The notes under the pieces are model-generated. The model worked only from the letters and a program-made list of their open reading frames with translations. It ran no database searches and was not told the origin of the DNA. 64,000 bases of DNA, taken from Psammoneis japonica. Lineage: Eukaryota. Position 1 is the first letter of the stretch, and every line of letters begins with the position of its first letter. A program made the position numbers and the translations under genes. This document shows positions 25,579 through 64,000 of this stretch, one piece after another. The DNA is taken from contig QPGO01000187.1 in NCBI GenBank assembly GCA_008632985.1, positions 62,001 through 126,000 on the forward strand, in the 5' to 3' direction.

Positions 25579-25739
25579 AACCGATAGACACCATTTCAGT
25601 GGTTGTGGTTTCGACTGCGAAGCGCAGGTGTAGAGACGGCAGACAGACATGTAACAAGATGGTCAGTTCTTGATTTCAGAGTGTCGGTTCATTGTGACGA
25701 TTGAAAAGAGTGCAAAGCAAAGCAGCACCTTGAGCTCGG

Positions 25740-29555: not shown

Positions 29556-30149
29556 GAGGCTTAACATTCAGGCACGTTTACTTTGGCGTAGTGTTGCCTG
29601 GTGACGGTGAGCGTCCAGCAGCATTTATCTCATCAGCGAAACCAACTATGTTGAGTGACTCAACAGAGGTGCAGAATACTCAACAATGACAGTGAAACGT
29701 AGTTTCGCCGCGATTCCTCTAGTTATTTTTGCTAACTCTAACATATGGCGATAGGTGTCGGCTCCCCCTTATTAACGTAAGCAGTACGTTCTTGTTCAGT
29801 CAGCGGCGACTGGCCTGTCGATTTCGGTCGTTTGCCAGCCTAGGAAAGAGAGTCCTCTTGAGAGTGAAGGAATCTATTCGGATTGTACAAGTGTCATGCC
29901 AGGCTTAGAGAGATCGACCGGATTGTGCAAATGGAAATTCTATCGATGTGTATGTCCGTTGACAAAAAGGAACTAAACGATTTATTGTGCCCCGTCTGCT
30001 GTCATGCGTCTCTTTTTCCTGGCCAAACTGTGTGCGTACTTCCTGCAAAAAGGCGGCGGCTTGAGGGGAGAAGTTGTTTTCGAAGGCAGCGGTTCTGGAG
30101 GTTATGTTCGACAGAGGTGGCGAACTATAAGCACCAATTACAAATGACA

Positions 30150-34900: not shown

Positions 34901-35228
34901 AGCTCACAAGTGTTTTCATCTTGGAAGTGCCTTTCATGCAAATGAGCAATCCAGAGTTTCCATTGAGTGATGCTCTTGCTGTTGCTCGCATGCTGACCAT
35001 GTTGTTTGCTGAAAACACACACAGCGCTTTTTTGCGACAACGAATCTTTGACTCCCATGATTTTCACAGAAAATGCACGCAGAAATGATTTTCACAATTT
35101 TCATCTCATGCCACCTTGATGACATGTGCATGCTGGCAAAGCTGTGTGCATGCTCAGCTCAACGAGTGTGATGATGTCATCACACACCACAGCCACATGC
35201 ATCCCACGGCAGCCCTTGCACAGGGGCG
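31964..35228. mobile_element. Non-autonomous Mutator-like (MULE) element, 3265 bp
   Basis: TIR C(A/G)CCCCTGTGCAAGGG at both ends and a perfect 9-bp TSD AGAAATGTT (31955-31963 / 35229-35237). Confidence 0.8.
34426..34687. mobile_element. 262-bp foldback MITE nested in the MULE
   Basis: TIR GGCCTGTTCCAGC(C/T)CCAGG(G/T)GATG, central hairpin ggtgagtgcacacaaaa/ttttgtgtgcactcacc and 4-bp TSD TGGT. Confidence 0.85.
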
Positions 35229-35575
35229 AGAAATGTTTGGCCAAGACAAGTGTCGCCAAAAAAATCAACTGCCGACATCATGATTTTTTTTTCTAAACAG
35301 CTCGAAATCTACTCAATCTACTTCCACTTGCCTGAAAACTGCTTGTCAGTCAGAAAACGAGCTCCTGTCGCGCCAAATGGCCTCCATGCATGACAGGTTC
35401 TTTGTGCTTTTTCAATTTTTAGGGGTGATGTGCAGACTGCACCAAGATTGCCAGTAGCCACTGCGTGAATCTTCTACGTGGGGGTGACCATTTAGCTGGA
35501 ATAATTCGACTAAATCTTTTTTTTTCAATGTTCGTCCGCCATCCGAATTCCTCGTGCTTTTTGTGTGACAAAAAA

Positions 35576-44861: not shown

Positions 44862-46564
44862 GGTTTACAATCTACTACAACGAGATGAAGAGTGAATGGG
44901 GCGTGTTGACGGCATTGCTGCGCTGCCAGGAGCGAGGAGCAACGGATTTTTCGAATTTTTCTCAAGGTCATTACAAAATTTGTCGTCGCATTATGCGAGC
45001 ATTGTCCTATTGCCCAACCCACAGCAGGGGCCATTTTTGTGACTTGGGCAGTGCCATTGGATGTCATTGCAGCTGCCCTGCCATGGAGGCTGCCAGCCGG
45101 AGAAACGCATGTTGTTGCGCTTCAGATTTTCAAACTCACGCAAGAAAGATCGCATGGGACCTTCAACTTGCGAAACTTCCCTCCGGCCAGGCCAGCACCA
45201 CCATGAAAAAGCAAGCGGGGGCCAGACGACGAGGACAACAACTCGACGTGGCTGTCAGACTTGGCAGAGAAACACGACAACGCACCAGAGAACAGTTTCC
45301 AGGCAGGGTGAACATCACACCACAATTGCTTTTTTGCAGAGGCTCAAAACGGAGCTCTCAAGCTCTGCCGATGTTCGAGAGCTGCTTCTTGGAGTCTGTC
45401 AGCACTGCAAGCCACCAGAGCAAGCTGCGAGCGTGCTCTTTCTTTTTGCCAACCTCGCGCACATTTGTGAGTGGAGAGCGAGCTTTGCACTGCCTCCCCT
45501 CTTGTGGATCTCATGCTCCTTGTTGATTGATGCCACAACTCTGCTGCAGCGCTGTGCGCAGGAGTGGGCAGGCAAAACAATGTCGCAGTGGCCTGGCAGT
45601 CTTTGTGATGCCCCTGTTTGTTGGCGCAGTCATCAGCTCTGTTGGGCGCTTTGGCTGTGGATGCAACATCCAGCATCTTGGCTGGAGCCCCTGGTTGATG
45701 ACCAACCCGGCACATTGTCAGTCAGTCAGCATGGGGAGCCCGCGCCAACTCAAGCCACAAAAGATGCAGCCGCCATGAGCAGATCCAAGATGATTGCTGA
45801 AACCAAAAACCTCAACAATGCTGCTGTCCCAGAAGGTGGCTTTGTGGCCAAGACATGGTCAAAATGTTTGACCGGGTCACTCTTTCAAAGTGAAGAGCTC
45901 TGTGAAGCACTTGGGGGTGCTGAAGTGATTTCCACAACAAGCCCAGTCAGAAACCTCAGGACAAGGAAGAGTCAAACTCCATCATCAAGAAGAAAGCAGA
46001 GACCTGTGTCTCAAATGCAAAGAAGAAGCACAAGGGAATGCAAAGAGGAGCTCAACCACTCCCATGATCAGCGCATCATCAACTCCACAACTCCAAAGAT
46101 GACTCCAAAGTGGACATCCGAGGAGGAGGCAAATGCAGTGCTGGTGGTTTCAATGCATTGGATGAGTGCACAAATGAAGGTCTGTCTGCCATCATGCTTG
46201 TGATGTGGGCCTGTCCCACAAACGAATTAAAAACATGAGAAACACCAGCTTCCACCAAGGCCTCCCCCTGTCATGCAAGAACAAGCTGACAAGACAACAA
46301 GCTCTGGGTTTTTTGGATCTTTGAAGAGATCCTTCAATCTGCTGATTGTCAATGGCTGCATTGTCCTTTCATTCTCCATTGTCAAATGCTTGTTTTGCCC
46401 CTGAGACATGAGAGGTGTGGAGCGCGGTTTTGAGGAAGAGCAAGACATGCCAAGCAGAGAGTCAAAAAACATTTGTGGGCTCAAACAACACTTGGATTTG
46501 CCAACCAGTCTCAGCTGCTTTTTCCTCAAAAGTCATCAATGCCAATTGCTTTTTGTGCTCAAAA

Positions 46565-47000
46565 TTGGCTGCTGGGCCAGTCCATGACTTCTCAACAAAG
46601 CTTTGACTCCAAAAAGTCAGCCACCCACTCTTGGCCATCACAGCCAACATTGTCATCTCCCTTGAGATCACTGTGCCATCACATGGAACAAAAATGTGTT
46701 CCAATGGAGTTGTTGTGCCATGAACGCCAATCTAGAAGGATTTTTGACAAGGCTGAAAATGACCATTGTTTGGGTCTTGGCTCACCTCGGTCGGGGGTCC
46801 CTTCACCCACATGCACTCACAGCGCTGGAGTTGCATGATGTGCATGTGGCTTGACAATGTCCAGAAGAAACTCTTGATGCACTTGAACAAAGAAAGCACA
46901 TTTTCCTGATGGCTGTGGTTGTTTGCACCAACAGAAAACAGAGACAATCACAAGGTGCAGAGCTGCTGTTGCTCTTCCAAGTTTTCCAGAAAGATGCTGT
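46565..47000 (-). pseudogene. Third, highly degenerate partial copy of the SGNH esterase gene
   Basis: Colinear with 55235-55700 (aaaagtcagccaccc, catggaacaaaaatgt, gggtcccct) and translates EHIFVPCDGTVIS. Confidence 0.75.
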
Positions 47001-47585
47001 TACATGAGGTGCAACAAAGGAGCAAAAGTCCTCCCAATTGGCAGTGACAAAAGAGGAATGATGTGCCCATGCTGTGGTGAATGACCCCATGCCGAGATGC
47101 TTGGGCTCAAGAGGGGATGGTTTGTGCACAAAATGCAGAAAAGCTTTGCTCTCAGTGCGCCACAAGAATGCCCATGGACCAGCATCTCCAGGCACCAATT
47201 TCATCTTTTTTTGTGGCTGCACTCTGATGATGACCCTCTCTGATCTAGAGCAGCAGTTGGCAGTTTGCCATTTGGTGGAAGCACGGTCAATTTCCCGTCT
47301 GCGTCGATGAGACAGATGGATGGACGTGATCGTGATCGTGACATCATGACTGGGCAAGGGCGCGATGAGCCCGCCCGCCTAAAACCAAAATGCTTCCCCC
47401 CCGGATTGGGTGACCGACTTCTGCCGGCATGCGTGGCAGGGACCATCTCAAGCAAGAGAAGGACGGAACGATCAGAAGGAAGGAAAGTTTGCGAGATGAA
47501 TGCAACACTGCAGCTGCTTGCGAACACGATAAACTGAAATTTGCAGTCTAGAGAGATGCAACGGCGACAATGGGACAGTGCAATG

Positions 47586-48025
47586 TGCAGCTGCTGACAA
47601 GAGCCAATGTGTCACGGCGACGTGTTACAGCCTTTAAATGTCACAAAGGGCGTGACAAAAATGACCTTTGTCTGCATGCACACTGCATTGTGAATTCACA
47701 ATGCAGCAGTTCATCGCAGCCATCAGGCAGGAGGCCAGGGGTTCGAAACCCTGAGTGGGAGTTGTCTGCAGCAACGTTGATCACTGTCGAACGCGTAAAA
47801 ACTCTGTGCAGTTCTGCATGTTCCTTCGCACGCACCCACACTGTTCCGCCAAAACCGTGCAGTGTCAGCACACGTCAGTGAAGAGCCGCATGGACGCGTG
47901 ACACATGGGGAGGAGTGCAGCACACAGCTGCCAACAAGAGCCAATGCACCACGGCGACGTGTTGCAGCCTTTGAATGTCACAAAGGGCGTGACAAAAACA
48001 ACCTTTTGTCTGCATGCACACTGCA
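47586..48025. repeat. Two ~100-bp direct repeats ~337 bp apart
   Basis: acaagagccaatg..cacggcgacgtgtt.cagccttt.aatgtcacaaagggcgtgacaaaaa..tttgtctgcatgcacactgca at ~47586-47687 and ~47923-48025. Confidence 0.85.
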
Positions 48026-48236
48026 ATGGCTGCAGTTCTGCACAATGGTTTGAGTTGTGTTGCGGCCTTTGTCGTTGGTCATCAGAATGCAAAGCAACAT
48101 TTGTCACGGTGATGTGAGCGTGTCTCTGCCACCGCACGACCATTCACAAGATGTGGAATGTGTTCCCCGAGCTGTCCCCTGGCAATCAAGTGGCACTGTG
48201 AACCTCAATGCAAGAGCCATGTGCCACACCAGGCGT

Positions 48237-49049
48237 TCATTCCACACAAGTGATTTCAACGCAACTCTTTCCAACATCACCCGCATCCAATCTGAACACC
48301 CCTTTCATTGAGATTTCTTGATCAATCAGTTCTGCAGTTTCCGGAACACCAGTGGTTTCCATGTTTTCAAGTTCAACTTCAGCAGAGATGAAGAATTTGT
48401 TTGCAAGCCAACCGGGGCAATCCAAGTGGCAATTGGCATGCCCACAGGTTCCAAACATCAATTCCCAGAAAGCTTGAGCCGCCTCTTCTGCCATTTCATA
48501 GAAGTTTTCAGGAGGTTGGTTGTTGTCCTTTTCTTCATGTGCAAGGCAGATGAAGAACCGGCAGTGCGGCTTGGTCATTTCTGTCAGATCATTCTTCTCG
48601 AACAACGAATTCTCGCGGGCCTCGTGCTTGAGCTTCTTCTTCCTCCCTTCAATTTCCTCATGATTGGCATTGTCACACATCGGAATTGATTTGTTCGGAA
48701 ATTCTCGGTTGAGCCACGCTTGTTCCAAGCGTGTGCACAAGTCGGTCACGGTGTCGTCGTTTTTGTCACAGGGTGCTTCCAGCCACTCAGCGTGACCCGT
48801 CAGCACCTTCATGTCAAAAGAGCAAGCCAGAAATGCAGCAGGGGACAAATTCTCTTCCTTCATGATTTGCGCACAGCCTTTGTACAGTTCATGACTTTCT
48901 GTCCTGCCAAAGTCGTCTTCTTTCTTGAGAACTGCTTGAACAACAGCATGCCAATGCTGCGTTGCAAGGACTTGCAGCCCACGCTGAACACCCTTGTCGA
49001 GTTGGTCAAAGGAAGTCATGGAAGGCTTGTTGTCAAAAGTGGCACTCAA
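48237..49049 (-). pseudogene. TpA-depleted ORF of unknown function
   Basis: 270-aa protein-like ORF with only 2 Tyr, inside a mutated domain. Confidence 0.35.
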
Positions 49050-49301
49050 GATGATGGCAAGGTGGGGAGGATGAAGAGACGCAGCACGCAGCGATCACAG
49101 CAATGCTGGATGCTTCACCGCTGCAACCTGCAACGCACGCAGAGCCTTCTTTCATTGTTTGTTTTCTTTTGTCATTTTTTGGCTTCACGCACAGACCGAC
49201 GGACAGATTGCATGACTGCTCGAAGCATGACATGCGTGAGCAGAAGAACAAATCATTGACCACTCAGTGGTTGGTGATTGCAGACTTTTTCGTGTCGGTC
49301 C

Positions 49302-49352
49302 GGCAGTCGGGCAGTGGGGCAGTGGGGCAGTGGGGCAGTCGGGCAGTCGGGT
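49302..49352. repeat. 8-bp tandem repeat GGCAGT(C/G)G x6
   Basis: ggcagtcg/ggcagtgg units seen directly. Confidence 0.85.
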
Positions 49353-51098
49353 TGTCCGTCTGAATTTGAAAGTGTGTCCCTTGGATTTTGAAAGGGCATG
49401 GGTTGTTTAGTGCAGATGAATTCTTCGGATTCTTGGAATTGTCATTGAGGACATGAGAGGTTGTGGGGACATCCTAAAAAATTGACAAATTCCCTGCGAC
49501 TGGTGCGTGGCACGGTTTTTCAGGAGAGCTCAAAAGTTCTGAAAAATTGGGATTGCCGGCGTGGCATGTTCAAAAATGTGCTCAGTTACACACAAAGACA
49601 ATTTGTCATGAATTCCACACGAAAAAGTCACATTGGGGAAAACACATCAAACTGCAAGTGAGTTTGTGTGATGCGCTGTTGTGGCGATAAATTGGAAAAA
49701 AAAGAGTGTCCGTGCACCTCGCTGCAGCCCCAAAAATGGCATGAGACATCAAATGTGACGGTCATCCGCGTCACCGGTGCGGTGGCCACGCCACTCAGCC
49801 ACCACAATGCCGGCCCCGACGCAGGGCCCTGCGCACGTACAGGCAATGCAGCATGCAACGGCACACATGCACCCACACCCACAAAGAAAGACAAGTGGTC
49901 AATGCTCCCTGCAGGCCTGGTTGTGTTCAATCCCATCTGAATCCCATGCTCTAGCTCTGTCTTTTTTCACCGCCCCCGCAGCTCTTCATGTGACTCAACT
50001 GCAATCCATTTCTGTGTCTCCCGGCCCCAATGCAACAGAACCACACAACTCCATTGGCCATTTGTTGGCAGCCAGTGACCAGTGCAAAACACAGAGCAAC
50101 AGTGGCTCCAGGCTGGCGAAGCACTCGGCGGCAGCTCTTCTTTTGCCTCACAAGCCACAATTGCTTTTTTGACAGAGCCTCAGATTTGAACTCTCAACCT
50201 CCACCCCACCACCACCACCACCAGCAGCTCTTGCCCCAGCAAGCACGGCCGCGCCAGCAGCGGAATCAACAAATGCCATGATGCAACAGGATCCAAGGTG
50301 CGCTGCAGCAACCGCACATCAAACATTCTCTCTGTGGAAACCTCCCTGGTCGGTGGTGTGCTGTCTGTTGGCAAAAAAATTTCAGCAGAGTTGAAAAGAT
50401 CAAAAATGTGAAAAACTTGCAAAGATTGCACAGCAGGCACAACTGCAGCAAAGATGCTCCCACAGAATGCACAAGCAACTGGGTGCTGTTTGTGTGGCAC
50501 ACCAATCATGAGCACATGCACTTGGAAATCACAACCATTCACTGAGGCAATCCTCCCAGCTCAGCATTGCTGGCTGTCCTGAGATCACAACAAAAGCTCG
50601 TGTGTGGCTGGAGCATGTGCTGCTTCCTCAGCAAGCACCCAGCACCGCTGCTCTTGTTTTGCTTCCAGCACCAGCTTTGCCAGTGCCAGGTGCAACCTGA
50701 GTCTTTGAATTCCTTGTCATTTTGACTTGCTCAATGGCCAACCAGCTGATTCTTCAGCAATTGCTGGTCAATTGACCTCTGTCATTCTCTGACTCTGCTC
50801 TTCACTGTTGGCTGATGATCCTGATTTTGAGCACTCTGGTTGGTTGTGGTGCAAGCCACTGGCACCAGACCTCAAGCCAGAGCTTGCAACTCAAGGAACC
50901 CAGAACTGGAGCTCTTGCCAGAGAGCCACAATGGGTGGGTGGTGTGGCTGCAAGCAAAAACTCACTCTCAACTCGTCAACATGCAGTGCAACATTGGTGA
51001 AAGAAAAGAGTGAGGTTGCCATGGCTTGTCAGGTGCTTGCAGCCATGAGTGCTGCTTCTGCAATGCACAAAGCACCTCAGAAGCAGCAACGCACAGCA

Positions 51099-51372
51099 CC
51101 CCCCCCCCCCCCCCCCCCCCCCCCCNNNNNNNNNNNNNNNNNNNNNNNNNNNNNNNNNNNNNNNNNNNNNNNNNNNNNNNNNNNNNNNNNNNNNNNNNNN
51201 NNNNNNNNNNNNNNNNNNNNNNNNNNNNNNNNNNNNNNNNNNNNNNNNNNNNNNNNNNNNNNNNNNNNNNNNNNNNNNNNNNNNNNNNNNNNNNNNNNNN
51301 NNNNNNNNNNNNNNNNNNNNNNNNNNNNNNNNNNNNNNNNNNNNNNNNNNNNNNNNNNNNNNNNNNNNNNNN
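51099..51372. other. Poly-C run followed by assembly gap (N, 51126-51372)
   Basis: Seen directly. Confidence 0.99.
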
Positions 51373-51610
51373 AGAACAATCTCTTTCTCTCTCCTCAAGA
51401 GATGCACGTGTGGCAACAGCACCTGGTCTTAAGATTGCCTGGTGCAGCAGAGAGAGAGGCAAGTTCTCATCATCCAAAAGCTCACCAATGCAAGAGGAAA
51501 CTAAAACCAAAGTCACTTTCTACAGCAAGTTAACTTCTGACAAAGTTGCAATGTTGCACATGGCACCACATGAGCAGACAACAATGTCCGCAGTTGTCTG
51601 GCAGTCATCA

Positions 51611-52001
51611 CAACAACTCCATTTGTTGGTGCAACCATCGGCTCTGTCGAACGCATCAGCTGTCAGGCCAGTCCATGATTTCACAAAGCTTTGGTTCTAA
51701 AAAGTCAGCCACCCTTTCTTGGCCAAGCTGGTTCTTGTGTCAACAACTCCATTCATTGGTGCAGCCATCATCTCTGTCAAACGCATGTCAGCTGTTGGGC
51801 CAGTCCATGATTTCACAAAGCTTTGGTTCTAAAAAGTCAGCCACCCGCTCTTGACCAAGCTGGTTCTTGTGTCAACAACTCCATTCGTTGGTGCAACCAT
51901 TGGCTCTGTCAAACGCATTTGCTGTTTGGCCAGTCCATGATTTCACAAAGCTTTGGTTCTAAAAAGTCAGCCACCTGCTCTTGACCAAGCCGGTTCTTGT
52001 G
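51611..52001. repeat. 3 x ~130-bp tandem amplification of the esterase pseudogene 3' end
   Basis: Unit caacaactccatt..ccagtccatgatttcacaaagctttggttctaaaaagtcagccacc..ggttcttgtg occurs three times. Confidence 0.9.
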
Positions 52002-53563
52002 GCTGTCACAACCAATGTCACCAAATCCCATCACAACCGGGCCGTTGCATGGAACAAAAATGTGTTCGGTCAGAATGGTTGCACCATGCGCAATCTGAAA
52101 GGATTTGACAGCATCTTGTGCATGTGGACAAGGTTGACAATGATCGTTGTTTGGATCTTGGCTCAGTTCCGCCGGGTCCCCTTGCCCACATGTGCTCGCA
52201 ATTGTTGGAAATTCATTGTTTGTAAATGGCTTGTGGCAATCTGCACAAGAAACTCTTGATGTGATTGAACAAAAGTCTCATTGGAAGGTGCCCCCTCTTG
52301 GTGGTTGCAATCATTTCCACCAAGAGAGACAATCACAAGGTGTGGTTGCCACTCCTCAAAGTTCCAAAAAGGCAGTGTCTTGGTCTGAAGGGTTCGGTTG
52401 CAATGACCCTGCATTGTTTTTTTGCCAAGCGCCACTGGCAAATTCGCAAATGCACTCTGCATCAGTCCAATGCCTAAAATGGCTTGGACGCTCACCTCAG
52501 CATTCAAACGTTTTCCCAAGATGCCAGGACATGCAGAGTTGCAATTGTTGCATTTCCAGGGTTGAGCAAGATGGCTGCATGTTTGCGGAGTGCCATCCAC
52601 ACAAAAGCCTGCCACATCACTGGCACCAACAAAACCAGCCCAGCATGCTGGCAGTGTTGGTGGAGTTGAAAGAGTTGCAACAGCGTCATCCATTTCCACT
52701 CCATGGAATTCAAGCACCGGCATGGCTGACTTGCCCAAACCGTTGCCACAGGGTGCACCGCTTTTGTGTCAGCAATTTTGTCAGCGCCGACGCGTTCCAG
52801 GTCTGGGTGGGACCTCGCACTGCTGAGCTGTGACGTCGACAGTTTTTTTAATCACGTTTGCATGTCGCACACACAGATTTCTGCTTGATTTTTTCGACAT
52901 TTTGTGTCATTTTACGGTGCAGTCATTGAGCGATCCGTCCAAAAACTTTTGACATTTTTTGTCACAGCGCGATTCTGTGACGTCTTGAGAATCGCGCAGG
53001 GCAGGCGCACTTGCAAAAACGTCGAGTGGTGAGAGGCACAATTGTGCCACAAACTTGGCCATCTGTTTGATGTTGAAAACAAACACATCCATCAATTAAA
53101 TTCTCGCACTGCGGAGCTCGCACGTAGAATTCTACGGGCCCAATGTCACAAGGAGTCCCACCTGGGGCTGGAGCACGTCCGCCAATGCCGCGGTGTGCAC
53201 CCTGGTGCCTTCAATTTGAGTGCCATGTTTGTCCTTCTCTGGCTGAAACAAATTTCCTTTCAGAATTGTTGTTTGCTCCAGTTTGCTGGTGACTGTGTTG
53301 GCTGCGACTGCATTGAGCCCGCACCCGATGAATTTTTGCTCGGAGGGCAAGGATGCCATCTCTTCTGCAGTCATGTTTGTGTTGAAGTGCACTCTGCTGC
53401 ATGGCCAGTCCAACCTGACAACACCATTGTCCTCAAGCTGTTGCCAGTGACCTGCAAAACTGAAGTTCTCTGCATTGTTTGCAGGACAAAAGGTTCCTTC
53501 AACAACAGCAGCGCTCAAGGCAACAACAAGACTTGCAACAGCACAAACAGTTGAAATCCTCAC
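51915..53563 (-). pseudogene. Full-length hypermutated copy of the SGNH esterase gene, interrupted by a MITE
   Basis: Colinear with 55232-56464, and its 3' flank (~51430-51650) matches ~55020-55230. ATG has become GTG and Tyr has become Cys/His throughout (GNDY to GNDC, WKYNN to WKCNN). Confidence 0.93.
52789..53179. mobile_element. 391-bp MITE
   Basis: Absent from the intact paralog. Imperfect ~25-bp TIR GACGYGYTCCAG..GGTGGGAC and 4-bp TSD CGCC (52785-52788 / 53180-53183). Confidence 0.85.
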
Positions 53564-53919
53564 AGCAACACGACGGCTGTAGCTTGAAAAGCAACAAGGT
53601 TGGTGCTGTCTGTTGGCAGTGACACCATAACCATGGGATGGTTTTTGTTCGATGTGCACAACTTTCGAACTTCAAAACTGCGACGGGCGTCGGGACGGCT
53701 GGGGGACGGACGTCAGTCCACGGGGATTGTCTTGTCAGTGTCTCGGGTGTGTGTTGGTCTTGATTCTGTGCCTCATTGCAGGCGTTGTCTGCCTTGCGGC
53801 TTGCGGCGCACAGAAGTTTTCAGTTTTTCGATAGCTACAGTAGCTAAGCATCTAGCATTGCATCAAGAATCAAGAAGAGTGGAAACAGATTGACGATTAT
53901 AAAACCATCATCATACACC

Positions 53920-54713
53920 ATGCCGACCTGCTACCGTTGTCAAGAAGAGCTTGGTTCGGCGGACTTTACTGCCTTTGAACTTAACAAAGTGGGAAAACGG
54001 TTGTGCAGAGGCTGCGTTGCGGAAAAGAGACCAGCACCCGCGGCTTGTCCGTGCAACAACCCGTTTTGTATCCACAAGGCAAACAAACCGAATGGTGAAC
54101 CGTGCTATCACTGTTACAACCATCAAGGCAACAAAAGTAAATTCATGTCCTACTCAATGTCAATGTCAAAATTGAACGAGGCTTGTGGCGAATTAGTTGG
54201 AACAAGCACCCAACTAAGCCCGCCGTAGATGCCGTGAATGCTTGTAAGGATCAAATTCCGATTACAAAAGATTTTGCGTGCTTTCTTTTTTCCACGGCGG
54301 TTGACGCCCTGGTGGACGGTGACCCCCAGTTGCCTCCGGAGAGGGCTCCGTTGTTGACGCAGTATGCGTTGGTGATTGAAAAACTTGCGGAAGAAGAGAC
54401 GGGCAGTCAGCCGAAGTTTTCCTCTGAAACGGACGCCTTGAAATATCGCTACAGAGAGGTTGCTCGCATTGACTGCGGCGATGATGTGGTTCCGTTTCTC
54501 GCTCGCCGCATCGATTGCCATTGCTTGGATGGGCGCAAGGCGTATTGTCCGGGCTGTCAAAAGGTGGTTTCTGCAAGAGTCATGAAAAAGTGCTCCGCCT
54601 GCAAAATCGCCCAATTTTGTTCCAAAGAATGCCAACGTGCTGCATGGAAGAGAAATCACAAGGTCGAGTGTAAAAAAATCAAGGGATTGGTGGATGCTGG
54701 CTTCTTGACTTGA
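53920..54713 (+). CDS. MYND zinc-finger protein with N-terminal CxxC..CxxC finger; 1-nt frameshift near 54200
   Basis: CPGC..KKCSACKIAQFCSKECQRAAWKRNHKVEC, preceded by FLARRIDCHCLD. Confidence 0.8.
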
Positions 54714-55231
54714 TCCGACTTTTGTTGGCGGAAAATCGCAGCACGTTCACACCATTCCAAAATATGCCAGTGCGTAACGAAACGTCAGTGTATTGCACAT
54801 TAGACATTGTCTATTATAACAGCTAAAACCTGTAAACTATCCAATACGACGTGTGTTGAACCTACTCACGGCAAGAGTGACTCTGTTGCGCACGACGCTG
54901 TCTTATGTCTTTCACCAAAGATTCTTATGGCAAAATAAGCGGTTGACGCTTTGCGACTTAGCTGACACTTAGGAGCCCAAAGCGATTGAAAAGTCACATC
55001 TGTGTAGCTACAGCTCATAATCTCGAGACTACACCGGTGCAGAAGAGAGAGGAAAGTTCTCATCACACAAGAGCTCACTAAGTCTGAAGGAAGAAGCTGA
55101 AATAATACGTCGCCCTTTGCAGCAAGTTAACTTCCGATAATGCCAAAATGCTGCCGTGGCACTACATGGGTAGGCTACGACAGTCATCGCAACACCTCCG
55201 CTCGTTGATGTAGCCATCGGCTCTGTCGAAC

Positions 55232-56464
55232 TTATTGGCTGTTGGGCCAGCCCATGATTTCACGAAGCTTTGGTTCCAAAAAGTCAGCCACCCGCTCTTG
55301 ACCAAGCCGGTTCTTGTGGCCGTCACAACCAATATCACCATCTCCCGACACAACCGTGCCGTCGCATGGAACAAAAATGTATTCGGTCGGAATGGTTGCA
55401 CCATGCATAGTCTGAAAGGATTCGACCGCGTATTGTATGTACGGACAAGGCCGACAACGATCATTGTTTGGATCTCGGCTCAGTTCCGTCGGGTCCCCTT
55501 GCCCACATATACTCACAATTGTTGGAATTTCATCGTTTGTATATGGTTCGGCAATCTGTAAAAGAAACTTTTGATATGCTTGAACAAAAGTCTCGTTGGA
55601 AGGTACCTCCTCTTGGTGGTTATAATCATTTCCACCAAGAGAAACAATCACAAGGTGTGGTCGCCACTCTTCAAAGTCCCAAAAAGGCAGCGTCTCTGTC
55701 TGAAGGGTTCGGTTGTAATAATCCTGTATTGTTTTTTCACCAAGCGCCACTGGCAAATTCGCAAACGCATTCTGCGTCAGTCCAATGCCTGATATGGCTT
55801 GGACGCTCACCTCGGCATTCAAACGTTTTCCCAAGACGCCAGGATATGCAGAGTCGCAATTGTTGTATTTCCAGGGTCGAACGAGATGGTCACATGCTTG
55901 CGGAGTACCATCCACACAAAAGCCTGCCGTATCACTGGCACCAATAAAACCAATCCGGTGTACCGGCAGTTTTGGTGGAAGCGAAAGAGTCGCGACATCG
56001 TCATCCATTTCTACTCCATAGAATTCAAGCACCGACGTGGCTGACTTGCCCAAACCATTGCCATAGGGTGCCGCTTGTGTCAATTTTGTCAGTGTGACGG
56101 TGTGCATTCCGGTGCCTTCAATTCGAATGCCGTATTTATCCTTCTCTGGCCGAAACGAATTACCTTTCAGAATCGTTGTTTGCTCCAGTTCGCCGGTGAC
56201 TGCGTTGGTGACGACTGCGTTGAGCCGCACCCGATGAAGTTTTACTCGGAGGGTAATGACGCCATCTTCTGCAGTCATGTTTATGTTGAATTGCACTCTG
56301 CTGCACGGCCAGTCCGACCTGACAACACCATCATCCTCAAGCTGTTGCCACCGGCCTGCAAAACTGAAATTCTCTATGTTGTTTGCAGGATAAAAGGTTC
56401 CTTCAACAGCAGCACTCAGGGCAACAACAAGACTTGTAACAGCACACACAGTTGAAATCCTCAT
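55232..56464 (-). CDS. Secreted SGNH/GDSL hydrolase, carbohydrate esterase CE2-like (410 aa)
   Basis: Signal peptide MRISTVCAVTSLVVALSAA, N-terminal FAGRW..DWP domain, and blocks IGFIGASDTAG, AISGIG, SLGGNDY, GCDGH. Confidence 0.88.
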   Translation of the reverse strand: MRISTVCAVTSLVVALSAAVEGTFYPANNIENFSFAGRWQQLEDDGVVRSDWPCSRVQFNINMTAEDGVITLRVKLHRVRLNAVVTNAVTGELEQTTILKGNSFRPEKDKYGIRIEGTGMHTVTLTKLTQAAPYGNGLGKSATSVLEFYGVEMDDDVATLSLPPKLPVHRIGFIGASDTAGFCVDGTPQACDHLVRPWKYNNCDSAYPGVLGKRLNAEVSVQAISGIGLTQNAFANLPVALGEKTIQDYYNRTLQTETLPFWDFEEWRPHLVIVSLGGNDYNHQEEVPSNETFVQAYQKFLLQIAEPYTNDEIPTIVSICGQGDPTELSRDPNNDRCRPCPYIQYAVESFQTMHGATIPTEYIFVPCDGTVVSGDGDIGCDGHKNRLGQERVADFLEPKLREIMGWPNSQ

Positions 56465-56752
56465 AGTAACACAACGACTAGTTCCTATCTTGAAGAGCAG
56501 AAATGTTGGCGGTGTATGTCTGTTGGTAACATCATGAGGATGGTTTGTGCGATGCACGCAACAACACAGCACCGTCCGCGAATTTTTATGAGTTATGTAT
56601 ATTTATATGAACACAACGGAAATTTTTGTCAATGGTGTTATGTAGTTTTTAACGGTTATCCGTTAAATTTAGTCTTGTTTGGCGAAGAACATAATACTGT
56701 TTATGCATTATTTATTCATGTGCCTTTCTATGTTTTGAGTCGTGAGGGCTGT

Positions 56753-56783
56753 TGATGACTTATGATGACTTATGATTACTTAT
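56753..56783. repeat. 10-bp minisatellite (TGATGACTTA)n, left part; continues at 62170-62262
   Basis: The same unit lies on both sides of the Gypsy element. Right-hand units mostly read TGATGACTTG or TGATGACTTT. Confidence 0.9.
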
Positions 56784-56945
56784 TGCAAGGTCTAACGAGA
56801 TAAAGACTTCAGTGATAACAAAATTGTGAGCGAAAGACCGAGGTAACGAGGGTCGCTTTCAGCGAAGCCCGTTACAACGGCTTCCGTTATATCTAATAGG
56901 TTCATTAATACTATATATCAGAAAAATAAGGTGCGAGACACTGCA
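56784..56945 (-). repeat. 3' LTR (TpA retained)
   Basis: 149/162 identical to 62008-62169 by hand alignment; adjoins the PPT. Confidence 0.95.
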
Positions 56946-56959
56946 CTCTTCCCTTCCAT

Positions 56960-58182
56960 GATTCGAGTGTCGAGAATCATGCGGGACTCAAAAAATTTAA
57001 ATTCCAATGGATGAGGATAGAAGGGAAACCCAAATGTTGGGGAGAAAACCCTTAACCTCAGGTATGATACGGTACGACGCGATGTATATTCAATCGTTCT
57101 GTCACATGAGGTGTACGTTGGACCGTAAGTGTGCCGTTGGCGTGTGCTTGAACGACAGGACATGGACCGTGAGCTCGTGGCTCGAGCTTGGTTGGGTCGA
57201 CAGCCTTGAGTAGAACTTGTCCGCCAACTTGAAAATCGTAGGATCAGCGTTTAGCGTTGGCTCGATGGAGATTCGCATTAACAATTGTTTGTCGGTGTTC
57301 TTGAATGGCAGCAAGATCGGCTGGGACCGGCAAGTCAAGAATCATGTCATGTTGAAAAACCACAGCACCGGGTGAAATCTTGAGAGCACGAGAAACCGCA
57401 CATCGCATTGCATGCATGGCAGTTGCCAATGCATTGTCCACTAGTTGATTGGCCTGCTCAACATTCTGTGGAGGACAAACATGAAGCAAAGTGCGCAAGA
57501 TGTTTCCAACAGTTTGATGCATGCGCTCGCGTGCCGCACTGGCTTGTGGATTTCGCGACGCAGTCGGAGCGTCTTCTACTCCTGCTCGTTGCAATGACAA
57601 TTGAAAGTCCTCTCCAATGAATTCTCCACCATTGTCATGGATGCACCGGTTGGGATGAGGATGACGAGACAACCAACAATTTTCAAATTGTTGAGCAATG
57701 TGAGACGAGGTTTTGTTGTCGATGCGAACAAGTTCAGTCACATTCGAAACGGCGTCAATACAAGTCAAAGCGTTGAATTCGATTTCATGGTTTTGAATTT
57801 CAATTTTCCAGGGACCGATGAGGTCAACCGCAACTTCCGTCCATGGTGATAAAGGCGCTTCCCGTTCAGGCAGGTCCCCATGTCCAGGGCCCAAAGTTTT
57901 CAAACGTTGACAATCAGCACAATGAAATCCTTCACAGGATTGACGAAGGGCAGGATGACAGAAATGTGCGCCAACAGTGGAATGCATTCGGTGCACTCCT
58001 GCATGTCCCAAAATCCCATGACACCATCGTATGATGTCGTGCAGCAACGCCGTTGGAACACAAATTTTCCACGCAGTCGGAGGATCATTCGGTCGAGCAC
58101 GACAACAAATTACAGGACGCTGATTCACATGTTCCACAACGAAGCGTTCTGGACATTGTTGTCGCACATTGTTCAGCTCCAC
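56960..58182 (-). pseudogene. Gypsy integrase
   Basis: H-x4-H..CADC zinc finger, VAVDLIGP, HDNGGEF and NPQASAARERMH. Confidence 0.9.
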
Positions 58183-58206
58183 GTCGACGAATTGGCATTC
58201 TTGAAT

Positions 58207-60540
58207 TCATTGCACAGTTGCAGGGTTTTGCATTTCCTCGAGAGAAGGACAGTTCAAAAATGATTCACACAATTCGGGGTCGTCCACGACAGAAGAATAA
58301 AATGGAGATGGTTCTTCACGACGACAGGAAAAATGAGACACACTGTTTTGGTCGTCCAGTTCTTCTTCATGCGGTGGCACAGCAGGGTCGATCGTCTTAA
58401 AATCAATCAGCTTGCCCTTGTCAGGAGCACACTTCCCTTCCGCAGGAGGGTCCACACGCGGCAATCTTGAAAAACAATCCGCCAAGAGACCATCTTTGCC
58501 ATCAACGCATTCGAAAGTTGGGGCAAAATCTTCCAAGAAGAGTCGCCACCTAAGAACTCGTTGAGAATTGAGCGCACGAAAGGTGAGATTTTTATGATCC
58601 GTAAAAACAGCACAGTCAGCTCCAAATGACATGCTTCGAAATTCTTTGAAACACATTGCCACCGCCAACAATTCTTTTTCAATCGTAGAGCAGTTCTGTT
58701 GTGCTGCGCTGAGTTTCCGGGACCAGTGAGCCACTGGTTTCCCGTCTTGCATAATTGCGGCTCCCATCTGACAGTCCGAAGAGTCAGCACAAATGTGGAA
58801 TGGTTTGTTGTGATCCGGGTGGACCCAAAGGGTGTCGTCCAGCATCAAGGTTTTCACATCTTCAAAGGCTCGTTGACATTCAGGGGTCCATTCCAACTTG
58901 CTCTTGCCTGTCAACTTTGTGAGTGGAGCGAGCACGTGTGAGCGACGAGGCCACATGTTGCGACAATAAGTTGCTGCACCGACAAACGATCGCAGTTGCG
59001 TCACAGTTTTAGGTGGTTGCATTCGTAGCACCGCTTCCACTTTCTTCTTCCACGGTCGGACTCCTGCAGGCATGAGCCAATGGCCTAAAAAATCCGTCTC
59101 TTGGACACACCATTCGCACTTGAGTGGGTTAATTTTCAGATTGTTCTCTTCTAGTCTGGATGACAGCTCATCGAGTCGACGCATGTGAGCATCAAACGAA
59201 TCATCAAATTGAGCAATGTCATCGATGTAAGTTTCAACATCGACTCCTTTTGCCACTTTTTCAATGATGGCTTGAGCAATGTCGGGAGAGGTTTTCAAAC
59301 CCATGGCCAATCGACAACATCGAAATTTTCCAAACGGAGTAACAACAGCACACAAATCCTTGGATTCTTCGTCAAGCTCGATGTGACAATAAAACACAGT
59401 GAGGTCCAACTTGGTCAAGTGCTTGCATCCCGAGCGTCGGTGAATAACGTCTTGAATGATCGGCAGAGGACAGACCTTTCGCTTGAGCACCTTGTTCAAC
59501 TCACGAAAATCGGATGCCCATTGAACTCGTCCATCCTTTTTGGGAGTTGCAAAAGTTCCGGCTGCCCATTCAGTTGGTCCCACTGGTTCCAGTGCGCCAA
59601 CATTACATGGATGTTGCAGTTCTTTCTTAAAAACGGCTTCATCCCTCTTGGACACTTCACAAGCCTTAGAATGGAAGGGAACAGCATTGGGATCAACTTC
59701 CAAGTGAACAGTCTCATGCGGACATTTGCCAAGCATTCCATCAAAGAGGGTTTCATGCTTTTCAAGCACTGCCTGTAGCTCATCACGTTGTTCTTGAGTT
59801 AAGTGAGTTTGAGCTTGCGCCACTTTCGCGGATGATGCTTTCTCGCACTTGGCGTCCATCACAAAAGATTGTCCGAAGGCTTCCTCATCGTCTTCGTCTT
59901 CTCCGTCGTTTTCCAGTGCATCCAACCAATTCTGAACTGAGTTCCAATGATTGGATTGCTTCATTGGGATCGACGTTTCCAACCACTTTGTTGTTCCAAA
60001 TCGAAAATCAAGCACGATTCCGGCTTTCGACAAAAAGTCTTGTCCCAAAATTAAATCATGCTTGCATGGGGCATCAAAAACTTGAGCCGCAATGCTGTCG
60101 ACTTGTTTTGACTTGTCAAATTCTGGCAATGTCAAGTCCTTCATAATGACGCATCGGGAGGATTCACATCGTCCGGCTGCCGTCTGAAAGCTCAACCGTC
60201 CTTCATCGTTCATGGTTGGATTCGCTCCCTTCGGCAAAACTCGAGAATGAACAAGAGTGTCAGCACCTCCTGAATCCAATGGCACTCGCAACACTCGCTC
60301 ACTCTCTTGATTTTGAATGGCACGCACCGCCATCAACGTCGTTGGCACCACATTCAATGGTTTGGGAGTCGCAGTTTTAGGGGTTGGCTCAGCGCACTCC
60401 AAAACGCCGCCCAATTTTTCTTCATTCACAGCATGAGATTCCATCAGGTCTCCCACATTGTCATCAACATTAAAACATGTGTTTTCTTCACGATCACACG
60501 AAACATAAAAAGATTGAGCGACACGCTCTGACTCGGGCAC
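58207..60540 (-). pseudogene. Gypsy pol: aspartic protease, RT, RNase H
   Basis: LDSG, DFRELN, TPFGKF..MGL, YIDD, FLGH, ADSSD, SRKL..EKELLA and FTDHKNL. Confidence 0.95.
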
Positions 60541-60552
60541 TTCCGTCCCTTG

Positions 60553-61774
60553 TCAATTACGCCAACTTCGTTGGCCTTGATGGGTGCGACCGTTCTGATC
60601 GCATCCATTTCCGCCTCGCATCTCACGAGGCCCTCCTTGATCAAAATGGTGCGACTCCATTTGCCAGCCACCAGGGGGAGCTGCTCCAGCCGGATTTCCA
60701 CAGCCTTGGGCATCACCGTTGGCTTGGGTGCCGTTTTGATTTTGGCAATAGGATCCATTCCCTTGAGAATTCTGGGAGTCATTGTAATTGCCGTAACCTC
60801 GGCCTCCACATCCTCCTTGATTGCCATGACTGCCACGTCCTCGACCTTGGAAGTTGCCACGACCTCCTCGACCTTGGGGTCCTCTGCCTTGGCAGTTTCC
60901 TCGGCCTCCACCACGACCTCCGCTACGACCGCCACGGTCGGACCTCGGTCGATGGTTTTGGCTTTCTGGATTCAAAATGCAATCCTTCCACTTGTGGTCA
61001 TGATTCGCATGCACCGGGCATCTAGATTCTGGATCCGTTCCACCACTGTTGCCACGAGAGCGTCTTGAAGCTTGAGACGAAGCACCATTGCTTTTCCTCT
61101 TCTTGTCCTGCTTCTTGTTGCTGCTCTTGTCAGCAAAAGATTTCTCATTGTTCGTGTGACTGATGATCTCAGCGAGAGCATCGTTTGCTGTCGCTCGTCC
61201 TGCTCGAGTGCACATCTCACGCCACGGACGAGGGAAGCTGTCGAATGTCATCTTTTTCTTCTGAGCTTCGTTGACTTGAGGAGCATTTCCCGGAAGTTTG
61301 TTGGAGTGCCGAATCAAGGTTTCCATGCGATCTGCATGCGCCCGCACTTCAGATTTGAATGGTTTTTTCAAAGTTGGCAAATGTTCAATCATCACATCAT
61401 GCGCTTCATCATCACAATAAGACAAGTAAAAACGATTGATTTCCTGATCAAAACGCTCGACAGTTTTATCGGCATCGTCAATTGCATTGGTCAAGTTCAC
61501 CCACTTGTCCTCTGCAGCATCCGCAAGCACTTCCTCGAAATTTTCGAACAACTCCTCGCCAGTGGTGCACTCCAATTTCACAGCAATTTTACGAAAACGA
61601 TCCTCAACGAACAACAATGCTTCAATGCCATGAGTGCCATCAAAACGCGGACACTTTTTTGTACGAGTGCTACCGTCATCATACGATTGGGTCAATTTCA
61701 CGTCCTCCAAGTCAGAATGCTCAAATTTAGCTTCACAGCCAATGCAAGGCTCCTTCAACGATTCACTCATCATG
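60553..61774 (-). pseudogene. Gypsy gag
   Basis: Open frame upstream of pol with CPVH..HKWKDC knuckle and RGG-rich tail. Confidence 0.85.
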
Positions 61775-62007
61775 AAAAAGGGAATGCAATTGTTCAACAG
61801 TCCTTTCCAGGGACTCCACCTTTGACTCCAAATGATGCACTCGGCTCGCCAAATTCTGTTCGTGTCGTTTACGTTGTTGCACTTGTTTCTGGTGCTCAAC
61901 AGCCCAAACTGCTGCTCCTGCGCGCAGTTCTCTTTTCTCACGTTTGGTCAATTTGTTTGCATTGTTCCCAGTCTCCACCCAGTTCTTTGAATCGACTGTA
62001 ATTACAG

Positions 62008-62169
62008 TGCAAGGTCTAACGAGATAAAGACTTCAGTGACAACAAAATTGTGAGTGAAAGACCAAGGCAACGAGGGTCGCTTTCAGCGAAGCCCGTTACA
62101 ACGGCTTCCGTTGTGTCTAATGGGTTCATTGGCACTACATGTCAGAAAAACAAGGTGCGAGACACTGCA
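62008..62169 (-). repeat. 5' LTR (TpA converted)
   Basis: Direct repeat of 56784-56945. Confidence 0.95.
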
Positions 62170-62534
62170 CTTGTGATGACTTATGATGACTTGGGATTGC
62201 TTGTGATGACTTGTGATGACTTTTGATGACTTTTGATGACTTGTGATGACTTGTGATGACTTCACTTAGGAAGTCGAGTGTGCGGTTCCCGTGCGAAGGA
62301 CAGCCAGCTGTCTGTCTGTGCAAAAATGTCATCAACACGAGAAGACGGAAAGGACGCGTTGATGTTGACTGGCATCAACTATGGCGTTCAAAACAACAAT
62401 CAGCAAAGCCATGAAAGTAAAACCATGATTACCACAATGAAGAATTCAACTACTTTAGGTGCTGCAAATGTGAGCGTGCGGCCAGAAGCACGCGCAATTG
62501 GGCAGTCTGAGGCATCGTCAACACAAGTTGCGAG

Positions 62535-63026
62535 TCAGTTCTTGTTTTTCTTGGACTTGATGAGCCAGTGAGAGCGCGACAAACAGTCCCTCTTCTCCTG
62601 ACAAATGTGATCTCGAAATGCTTTCAACGGGAAAGCCGCGCAAGCTTGGCGGGTTGCTCGTGGCTTCTCCGGCTCGATCTTTGTCTTGTCGCGAATCGAC
62701 GTGTCGACGTCAATCTTGAGCCACCTCTCCACCTCGGATCCCTGCCAACGAGGATAGCCTCGGAAGGCATGCGGTGCAGGAGGATGCAAACGCAGGTCGT
62801 GCAAGAAATCAGCCCTGTCTTGTTTGGCACGGGCTTGCCCGGCAGCGATGGTTTTCCGAAGATTGTTCAGGTTGCTCTGAAAACGCTCACAGGGGAATTC
62901 TTGAAATTCGGGGCACGTTTGGCAGATGGCTTTGGGTCCCATTCTGTCAACCTTCTTGGAAATGATGTCTTCCCCAAGAAGCATCTTTGCCTTGCTGTGC
63001 TTCCAACCTTTTTTTCCTCTTGCCAT
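62535..63026 (-). pseudogene. Degenerate two-repeat ORF (W..S.A..LL..D ... R.EY..F....FR.HIYQE type)
   Basis: WKHSKAKMLLGED..PEFQEF..RF and WQGSEVERWLKID..AFPLKAFRDHICQE. I recall this family as repeat-associated in diatoms; unverified. Confidence 0.5.
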
Positions 63027-63421
63027 GGTCATCGTTCCCTGTTGGCTCTGTCGTCTTGGTTCTGCTGTGTGCTGTGGACTGGCCAGGAAATCGCCAAAAA
63101 TTGTTTTGCCACAAAACTTTGGAATTTGAGTGGGCGGCACATTTCTACGTGCACACTAGATTTTCGGTGCATTTCTGCGAAACTCAGTGAGAAACAAAAA
63201 CCATGTGGAAGCGCACAGGCAGAGATTGCCAGGTTAACCCGGCAAAAAAATTTGAGTTTGAATCCCTCTTGTTGATCCTCGAAGGAAAATGTACATTGTG
63301 TTGTCTTTGCAAACACACATGGGAAAAACATTTCCCACGCTTGGCACGAACAAAATTTTGGAGGTTTAGCGAGGCAAAGTTCTCGCTCAAGTTCTTTCTT
63401 CATTGCATGCACAGCAGCTCA

Positions 63422-64000
63422 ATGAGCAGCAGTGGCAGTCAAAACCAACAGCTGCAGCAGCCACTTTCCTCTCCATCGCCCAACAGGACCAGGAGATCCA
63501 TCGGAAGCAGACGTTGCGACTCTGTTCCCGCAGCTGTCAACCAAGCAATCATTGAATCGCTGCTCCGTGATGGGACCGTCTTGTTCTCCGACTTTCACAA
63601 CAACGAACTTTGCGGATCAGCCGACAAGTCCGAGGAAAGAAGAGCTAGAAACCAATTTGACGTCATCCGCCGCTGGCTGAACTGTCAACCCAATCATTTC
63701 GACAACTTGGTCAGAGATCTCGAAGCAATCGAAGACACGCCGGAACCGGAAGAGCCTTCACCAGCAGCCGCACCAGCAGCGGTGCCAGCAGCCGCACCAG
63801 CAGCAGAACCAGCAGCATCAACACGAAGAGCCATGGCGAGCAAGTGCTGCATTGTTCCATTTTTTACAACTGTTTTGCATCTCTCACCATCACGTCGCCT
63901 TCTTCTTTTGTTCTTTTGCAGATGTCTTTGATGGTGCCAACGAGACGGCGGAGCTCCTGGCCATCGAGATCAAGGTCAGGACATTCAACTTAGTCCGACC
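63422..64000 (+). pseudogene. Divergent ORF with PAAA repeats, partial
   Basis: MSSSGSQ..PAAAPAAVPAAAPAAEPAA, with a possible intron at ~63845-63920. TpA-depleted. Confidence 0.35.

Follow-up and report, generated by a model that had tools for sequence, protein, structure and literature searches.

We analyzed a 64,000-bp window of eukaryotic DNA, the stretch of Psammoneis japonica contig QPGO01000187.1 (assembly GCA_008632985.1) from position 62,001 to position 126,000, and all counts given below refer to this window. At its center of interest is a gene for a secreted esterase that is present in one intact and one dead copy. The dead copy lies in one of six islands from which the dinucleotide TpA has been almost completely removed, and nearly every TpA of the intact gene reads TG or CA there. 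A retrotransposon just upstream of the intact gene has one long terminal repeat (LTR) inside such an island and one outside. The features that carry the argument, with TpA and other dinucleotides expressed where useful as observed/expected ratios (O/E), are the following.

55232 to 56464, minus strand: intact coding sequence (CDS) of a secreted SGNH/GDSL-type esterase of 410 amino acids, an open reading frame (ORF) read by translation, with 39 TpA, a normal number
51870 to 52785, minus strand: 3' two-thirds of the dead copy, aligning to 55187-56092, with 3 TpA left
53186 to 53614, minus strand: 5' third of the dead copy and about 50 nucleotides (nt) upstream of it, with 1 TpA left in 53183-53605
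52786 to 53182, no strand assigned: insertion resembling a miniature inverted-repeat transposable element (MITE) that splits the dead copy, with 28-nt imperfect terminal inverted repeats, from a very high-copy family
46533 to 47001, minus strand: third, older esterase fragment, matching 55202-55694, with none of its ancestral TpA kept
45009 to 53831, no strand assigned: island of 8.8 kb with all dead esterase pieces, TpA O/E 0.06 (34 TpA in 8823 bp), CpG 0.48, TG 1.67, CA 1.70
56784 to 62171, minus strand: young LTR retrotransposon of the Ty3/gypsy type that lies immediately upstream of the intact gene and encodes reverse transcriptase (RT), RNase H and integrase domains
57443 to 64000, no strand assigned: younger island that begins inside the retrotransposon and reaches the end of the window, TpA O/E 0.16, CpG 0.88

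The product of 55232-56464 is, judged from its sequence, a member of the SGNH/GDSL hydrolase family with a predicted hydrolase activity. Its N terminus resembles a signal peptide, and 84 homologous proteins were found in marine protists with identities of up to 58-60%; several are named SGNH hydrolase-type esterase or carry PF13472. The protein itself matches PF13472 with an E value of 3.2e-5 (24.9 bits, under the cut-off of 32.9), and the residues that are invariant among ten sequences, the esterase and its nine nearest homologues, are S177/D178, G277-D280 and H383, corresponding to the Ser, GGND and His blocks. The DNA around the gene is unremarkable in its TpA content: the 230 bp of 3' flank that belong to the duplication (55002-55231) keep 13 TpA, 319 bp of the upstream (5') flank keep 27, and the intergenic stretches 54714-55231 and 56465-57280 are rich in TpA.

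The dead copy (51870-53614) has the same orientation as the intact one, lies 3.3 kb to its left, and includes flanking sequence both upstream and downstream of the gene. An earlier note on this DNA had described one copy as intact and the other as dead, with the ATG destroyed, and the alignment bears this out: the start codon is lost (the remnant at 53561-53563 reads GTG), the frame is shifted by +2, +2, +5, +1 and +2 within a series of net insertions of 2, 2, 5, 1, 2 and 3 nt, and a 401-nt net insertion relative to the intact copy coincides with the MITE-like insert, whose arms (52786-52813 and 53155-53182) are 75% complementary. Contigs from a public DNA run show both esterase copies at equal depth (54-58), making the dead copy single-copy by this measure, although the run may be the source data of the window and is thus not independent. 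The same run gives the MITE-like insert a summed contig depth of 82,000-89,000, against about 55 alongside, with about 900 contigs at 95% identity or more. Compared with the window, the run contigs have 15 single-letter differences, none of them at TpA-derived sites and several being the state of the other copy; they show no hint of TpA polymorphism still in progress and are uninformative either way. As a separate observation, the MITE-like insert (52786-53182) contains just 5 TpA in 397 bp, so the abundant family may itself be TpA-poor.

Alignment of the intact and dead copies over 1287 positions in 8 ungapped blocks revealed 166 differing sites (87.1% identity), of which 133 are transitions and 33 are transversions. 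Recoding both copies as purines and pyrimidines masks the transitions, and the similarity is then 97.6% across 884 nt and 94.3% across 459 nt. Within the blocks, the 40 TpA of the intact copy have become CA 18 times and TG 16 times, remain TA twice, read otherwise four times, and never read CG. The earlier note had counted by hand about 38 TpA in the CDS, of which about 33 read TG or CA, about 4 differed otherwise and 1 was kept. A count over the aligned CDS agrees closely, at 39 TpA with 34 changed to TG or CA (18 TG, 16 CA), 4 other and 1 TA, and with 1 of 39 kept the description of the process as running to near saturation also holds. Only 4 TpA occur in the blocks of the dead copy (2 shared, 1 opposite CA, 1 opposite TG); the reverse change is thus rare. 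When both strands are combined, A>G affected 34 of 82 adenines in TpA (41.5%) versus 32 of 578 elsewhere (5.5%; Fisher p = 7e-17), and the latter show similarly low counts by context (AA, 10/206 or 4.9%; CA, 12/212; GA, 10/160). TpA specificity therefore survives comparison with non-TpA adenines, which change about 8 times less often. Both strands were hit to the same extent, with 16 TG versus 18 CA at changed TpA (binomial p = 0.86).

Many CpG were lost as well, as previously noted: out of 71, 48 have become TG (30) or CA (18), 21 are kept and 2 read otherwise, and C>T was found at 48 of 143 CpG positions versus 19 of 484 elsewhere (p = 1e-19). The CpG count that goes with the 39 TpA of the CDS is 45 of 66 changed to TG or CA. 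The more decayed third copy that had been placed at 46565-47000 is real and spans 46533-47001. All 13 of its aligned TpA sites have changed (6 CA, 6 TG, 1 AA), and 12 of its 16 CpG read TG or CA.

Pairwise differences have no direction of their own, but three independent lines of comparison, from homologues, from the patterns among the three copies and from the LTR pair, agree that TA is the ancestral state and that the change runs from TA to TG or CA. Polarization was performed at the protein level, metagenome relatives (at most 52% identity) being too distant for use at the DNA level. The comparison took in 397 codons, and at 21 of them changes at TpA positions alone account for a different amino acid, typically Cys (TGY) or His (CAY) in place of a conserved Tyr (TAY). 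In the nine nearest homologues, the residue found at these 21 positions is that of the intact copy in 15 cases, that of the dead copy in 3, and neither or both in 3; when all 55 homologues are used, the numbers are 16, 4 and 1 tie. The outgroup proteins thus do not share the TG/CA states, and the direction assumed in the earlier note stands. The decayed copies provide a different kind of evidence. At 10 sites both read TG or CA, agreeing at 6 and showing opposite outcomes at 4, and opposite outcomes in two copies require a TA ancestor.

The retrotransposon supplies the third line. It straddles an island border, so that its 3' LTR (56784-56947), which is unmutated, and about 330 bp of its interior lie beside the esterase promoter with normal TpA, while the remainder from about 57443 onward, including the 5' LTR (62008-62171), is TpA-depleted. 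The two LTRs (164 nt, 92% identical) have 13 differences, all transitions and all in one direction: 10 are TA in the 3' LTR and TG or CA in the 5' LTR, 2 are CpG changed to TG or CA, and 1 is an adjacent A>G, for an A:T>G:C share of 11 of 13 with the remaining 2 at CpG. The 15 TpA of the 3' LTR read TA, CA and TG five times each in the 5' LTR, no TpA is private to the 5' LTR, and 2 of its 10 CpG have changed. Since the LTRs were identical at integration, these differences arose after insertion and in one LTR only. They also convey the speed of the process, with 10 of 15 TpA changed versus a single one of the 13 differences falling outside TpA and CpG. The long ORFs of the element are still open, and Tyr makes up 0-1.3% of their residues versus 2.2-3.4% in host genes.

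Two further observations concern this element. The RT ORF (58210-60552, minus strand) has kept the Tyr of its Y-I-D-D motif, though Tyr accounts for 0.6% of its 781 amino acids; this survival may be due to chance or to recent activity of the family under selection. A short tandem repeat of the host (unit about GATGACTTAT) surrounds the element, flanking it at 56736-56783 and 62172-62254. Each unit on the non-island side keeps its TA, and the island side reads TG there, which indicates that the purge extends past the element into host DNA.

Beyond the esterase locus, the islands and the remaining features near the gene copies are as follows.

3879-12791, 21414-23144, 25782-27262, 30140-35293, 45009-53831 and 57443-64000, no strand assigned: the six TpA-purged islands, recognized by TpA O/E
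51397 to 52001, minus strand: incomplete duplicate of the 3' flank and the 3' end of the CDS, after which the CDS end recurs in tandem units of about 130 bp; found by sequence matches
45337 to 45725, minus strand: faint fourth piece with remnants of the 3' flank and the end of the esterase CDS, matching 54970-55305
53920 to 54713, plus strand: MYND zinc-finger gene (PF01753, E value 3.3e-8) with normal TpA, between the dead and intact esterase copies

Together the islands cover 32,660 of the 64,000 bp at TpA O/E of 0.03-0.16, versus 0.52 in the other 31.3 kb, which bear the genes. In the younger island, where 70 TpA remain, the combination of a TpA O/E of 0.16 with a CpG O/E of 0.88 implies that TpA loss is faster than CpG loss and separable from it. 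The edges are sharp to tens of bases. TpA occurs every 10-100 bp up to position 45008 and next at 46228; runs free of TpA reach 1478 bp within islands, and just outside them a TpA is found every 20-30 bp or so. The borders at 3879, 12791, 45009 and 53831 lie 0-150 bp from gene starts, and the MYND gene begins 90 bp beyond the last of these. On the inner side of that border, TpA-free DNA (53690-53831) continues for about 140 bp past the end of esterase homology.

What can be recognized inside the islands consists of two LTR elements, the MITE-like insert and the host-derived esterase pieces. About 20 kb of island DNA has no recognizable origin, and about 4 kb of island 45009-53831 is without a detectable repeat within the window. 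None of 60 island ORFs of at least 90 amino acids, from five islands, had a Pfam match above the curated cut-off; ORF 48240-49094 had no homologue among 559 candidates, and ORF 45043-46200 had 0 matches in 1.84 billion representatives. The faint fourth esterase fragment is supported by a transition-tolerant alignment score of 100.5, versus 55.5 at most for shuffled sequences, and by purine/pyrimidine matches.

Several side observations concern the islands. Island 3879-12791 contains the older of the two LTR elements, with direct repeats at 4176-4497 and 11520-11834 that are 68% alike, or 85% with transitions hidden, and a zinc-knuckle (gag-like) ORF at 10871-11404. With TAA and TAG gone, the islands hold overlapping stop-to-stop ORFs of 150-455 amino acids on both strands that have no family match, such as 4827-6191 on the minus strand with 4859-5392 on the plus strand, and long spurious ORFs of this kind are likely to mislead gene callers. 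Island 21414-23144 is strand-asymmetric (TG O/E 2.28 versus CA 1.59) in a way that the other old islands are not (1.66/1.62, 1.87/1.92 and 1.67/1.70), for which ancestral composition or a period of strand-biased activity might be responsible. The adjoining stretch 23145-25781 has intermediate TpA O/E (0.14-0.38), normal CpG (0.75-1.18) and ORFs without family matches, and is possibly young or partly affected territory. At 51126-51372, a run of 247 N marks an assembly gap inside an island; next to it is a homopolymer-like C-rich/G-rich tract whose translation is poly-Pro or poly-Gly.

The window as a whole has a GC content of about 48%, and a profile scan identified host genes for ECM29 (best protein match at 48% identity), a CCCH finger protein, an RBR ligase, a SWEET transporter, a cyclase and the MYND finger protein. 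ORFs of 3-3.8 kb run uninterrupted. A decayed copy of the MYND gene, sought in 47000-51100 and 62172-64000, gave scores that were not clearly above those of shuffled sequences.

The TpA that survive in islands are not a random sample. TTAA, CTAA and GTAA are enriched among them, and ATAT, ATAC and GTAC are nearly absent (163 island versus 1129 other TpA; chi-square p = 1.5e-17), which fits an additive model where the susceptibility of an adenine depends on its 3' neighbor, being highest with T or C, lower with G and lowest with A. Polarized sites, a test largely independent of the survivor ranking, give hit fractions per strand of 32/65 for a 3' T, 20/38 for C, 6/20 for G and 5/35 for A (chi-square p = 0.0016). 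At individual sites, the survivor-derived ranking correctly named the strand that had been hit in 33 of 47 informative cases (p = 0.008), and in 28 of 40 (p = 0.017) when the third copy is left out. By symmetry, this preference for a pyrimidine after TA can equally be read as a preference for a purine 5' of the T.

A process of this kind has been described once before. Mettrop et al. (bioRxiv 10.64898/2026.01.13.699255) report localized TpA hypermutation of integrated viral DNA in mutation-accumulation lines of Bigelowiella natans. According to that preprint, two silent viral regions yielded 231 de novo mutations, of which 230, all of them on TpA, were A>G or T>C; the rate was about 1000 times the background, and one of the two regions was single-copy. 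The same preprint (bioRxiv 10.64898/2026.01.13.699255) describes TpA-depleted clusters enriched in CpA and TpG, 124 of them in about 95 Mb, with a rho(TpA) of 0.45 for a region from a nucleocytoplasmic large DNA virus (NCLDV), and proposes an ADAT2-like DNA adenine deaminase, naming tRNA adenosine-34 deaminases (TadA or ADAT2-ADAT3) as candidates and citing DNA editing by amphioxus ADAT2. The B. natans mutations and those of the window are alike in being almost only A>G or T>C, in turning TpA into TpG or CpA, and in being confined to regions, and the depleted sequences reported for B. natans are enriched in transposon-type domains. The islands here hold two LTR elements and a MITE-like insert, and also the host-derived esterase pseudogene. 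The two data sets differ in what they capture, de novo mutations and a mild long-term signature in B. natans versus purging of about half of our window to an O/E of 0.03-0.16. Our literature searches for TpA-specific A:T>G:C hypermutation recovered no report besides bioRxiv 10.64898/2026.01.13.699255, and the signature in the window matches the TpA-only hypermutation already reported there, so that the process itself is not new. New at this locus are the saturation reached in a pseudogene of host origin, borders that resemble those of territories and a preference for TA followed by a pyrimidine; the main text of the B. natans preprint contains no analysis of host-gene pseudogenes, flanking bases or borders.

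The explanation that we regard as probable is a mutator that would act at the DNA level, on both strands and within limited territories, converting A:T to G:C specifically at TpA (favoring TpA followed by a pyrimidine) in any resident DNA, including a host pseudogene, in parallel with CpG decay. The DNA of the window documents the direction of change, its TpA specificity, its occurrence on both strands, the limits of its domains and its flanking-base preference. An enzyme, a chromatin trigger and, for the loss of CpG, cytosine methylation would be the agents behind these patterns. The dead esterase would then be an old tandem-duplication pseudogene caught inside a hypermutated territory, where each A:T>G:C event at TpA would leave TG or CA according to the strand hit. 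The process would act on DNA and halt once TpA is destroyed, and a process that stops when TpA is gone would explain why TA never became CG. It would outpace background substitution by a factor of tens to hundreds and would be accompanied in the same territories by a slower decay of CpG to TpG or CpA.

The target would be a sharp-bordered domain beside active genes. It would probably consist of chromatin whose silencing started from transposons or tandem repeats, and a second copy alone would not be enough for targeting. Targeting looks territorial because the intact copy and its flanks were spared, one LTR of a twin pair was hit, and the dead copy shares its island with unrecognizable DNA. 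This qualifies the earlier note's statement that the process hits duplicates of host genes: a host-derived pseudogene is affected, but duplication is probably not the trigger, given that the intact duplicate and its flanks keep their TpA and that one LTR of the pair is spared. As for chemistry, the most likely route would be that an enzyme, possibly one resembling a tRNA A34 deaminase, deaminates the adenine of 5'-TA-3' to hypoxanthine, a reading favored because of the B. natans precedent and the T-A-pyrimidine context.

Some of the data pull against this explanation. At amino acids 10, 149 and 246, and at 345 in a mixed codon, the dead copy, unlike the intact one, has the homologues' residue, so a few differences arose on the intact lineage. 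None of 28 metagenome loci with esterase relatives, which are short and gene-dense, contained a TpA-purged stretch. Copy number and island content are judged within the 64 kb of the window, everything recognizable in the islands is a repeat of some kind, and the silenced state of the territories is something we infer. The flanking-base counts are small, and the dead and third copies may share part of their history. Finally, TpA is self-complementary, so that an altered A and an altered T look the same in sequence.

The repeated nature of the recognizable island contents is an argument for a homology-triggered process resembling the repeat-induced point mutation (RIP) of fungi, in which duplicated DNA would be mutated at TpA and the intact esterase would survive as hit lineages are removed by selection. 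The esterase copies, the LTR elements and the high-copy MITE-like insert would all qualify, there are at least 4 pieces of the esterase locus in tandem orientation in the island, and a comparison with RIP is made by the B. natans authors themselves in their preprint (bioRxiv 10.64898/2026.01.13.699255). Such a trigger should not have left 13 TpA in 230 bp of 3' flank and 27 in 319 bp of 5' flank in the duplicated noncoding DNA around the intact gene, nor 15 of 15 TpA in a 3' LTR when 10 were lost from its twin, which is 92% identical. Depth indicates a single copy of the dead gene, about 4 kb of the island lacks any repeat that could be detected within the window, and the main B. natans target, according to the preprint, is single-copy. 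The TpA-free DNA that extends some 140 bp past the end of homology (53690-53831) also speaks for territory, though leakage from a homologous region would fit RIP too. On balance we find this explanation unlikely. Another would keep the territory and change the chemistry: the thymine of TpA would be modified or oxidized to 5-hydroxymethyl- or 5-formyl-uracil by a TET/JBP-type enzyme and pair with G, giving T>C. The self-complementarity of TpA makes TA>CA and TA>TG fit T>C equally, a purine 5' of T is as valid a statement of the flanking preference, and 5-hydroxymethyluracil in dinoflagellates is enriched at TpA and TpC. Against it, tRNA adenosine deaminases naturally act in a U33-A34 context, to which T-A-pyrimidine corresponds, the window offers no direct evidence for it, and no TET/JBP-type enzyme was seen among the window ORFs scanned; it seems to us quite unlikely.

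The other explanations that we considered do less well. The intact copy might have gained TpA by classical RIP (CpA>TpA), or the TG and CA states might be sequencing errors at modified bases, and it is true that pairwise differences are directionless and that the sole run containing the stretch may be its source data. Yet conversion of CpA to TpA would create stops, and it is the TpA-rich copy that has the open 410-amino-acid frame and the conserved Tyr residues; the discordant TG/CA outcomes and the LTR asymmetry contradict reversal as well. An artifact is hard to reconcile with the indels, transversions and insertion of the dead copy, which resemble those of a real old pseudogene, or with run contigs that match the window at these sites, and we regard reversal or artifact as the least credible possibility of all. 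Hardly more credible is a fossil of RNA editing, in which an ADAR-type enzyme hyperedited a transcript from A to I and the dead copy is an edited, reverse-transcribed retrocopy. Retroelements are present in the window, but editing of one RNA strand would give one type of change and not 16 TG and 18 CA. ADAR tolerates a 5' A nearly as well as a 5' U and prefers a 3' G; here the rate at AA is 4.9% versus 41.5% at TA, and the order of 3' neighbors is T≈C>G>A. The copy also carries both flanks, lies in tandem and in the same orientation 3.3 kb away, and the LTR differences postdate integration, points that weigh more heavily than the resemblance of A>G with a 5' U preference to ADAR editing that is drawn in bioRxiv 10.64898/2026.01.13.699255. 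A genome-wide process, with TpA kept only under selection and the islands being simply unconstrained DNA, would account for borders at 3879, 12791, 45009 and 53831 that fall within 0-150 bp of gene starts. It would not account for an LTR that has no obvious function and keeps 15 of 15 TpA while its twin lost 10, for TpA-rich intergenic DNA at 54714-55231 and 56465-57280, or for a rate that, in the B. natans preprint, differs 1000-fold between regions, and we consider it very unlikely.

Other known mutators offer partial counterparts to the one that we favor. As general background, RIP in fungi changes C:G to T:A at CpA, makes TpA and stop codons, lowers GC and mutates both copies of a duplication; in the window, TpA is destroyed, TAA and TAG are removed, GC rises, and one copy or one LTR alone is affected. 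The likeness lies in irreversible, dinucleotide-specific transitions that disable transposons and duplicates and skew dinucleotide ratios (on RIP, see PMC2621366). Fungal RIP itself was rejected as a candidate, the direction being opposite (TpA>TpG/CpA) and the intact copy, its flanks and the 3' LTR being unmutated. Fossils of ADAR (RNA) and APOBEC (DNA) activity in retroelements (PMC4866542) are similar as deaminase-type hypermutation fixed in genomic copies of mobile elements, with a 5' U or T preference for A>G. They differ in arising before or during reverse transcription and on one strand, whereas the changes in the window are on both strands, follow integration and include a duplicate that was not retroposed. 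CpG in silenced repeats decays by deamination of methylated cytosine, and this fits the change of CpG to TpG or CpA in the same islands, explaining the CpG half of the pattern only. In their natural substrate, tRNA adenosine-34 deaminases act on an adenine that immediately follows an invariant U (U33-A34). This is consistent with the T-A requirement and is a lead only; no gene of this type was seen in the 64-kb window, and these enzymes are not known to act on double-stranded chromatin DNA.

The value of this locus is that of a polarized natural experiment: a functional gene, a saturated pseudogene 3.3 kb away, an older third copy, and a young retrotransposon whose LTRs straddle a border are all found together. 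It indicates that saturation is reached, that host-derived as well as foreign DNA is affected, and that the process followed position and not copy number, and the flanking-base preference can guide the search for an enzyme. More tentatively, and with doubts that still outweigh our confidence, the window may represent a second, unrelated lineage of marine protists with DNA adenine deamination that is guided by chromatin territory, does not depend on homology, and turns 5'-TA(Y)-3' in transposons and trapped host DNA into TG or CA irreversibly and quickly, stopping sharply at active promoters. If so, it would be a mirror image of RIP, and the T-A-pyrimidine preference would suggest that a deaminase of the tRNA-A34 type had been repurposed. 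It would destroy Tyr codons, TATA sequences, poly(A) signals and start codons preceded by T, create no stops and raise GC, and it may be widespread in protists.

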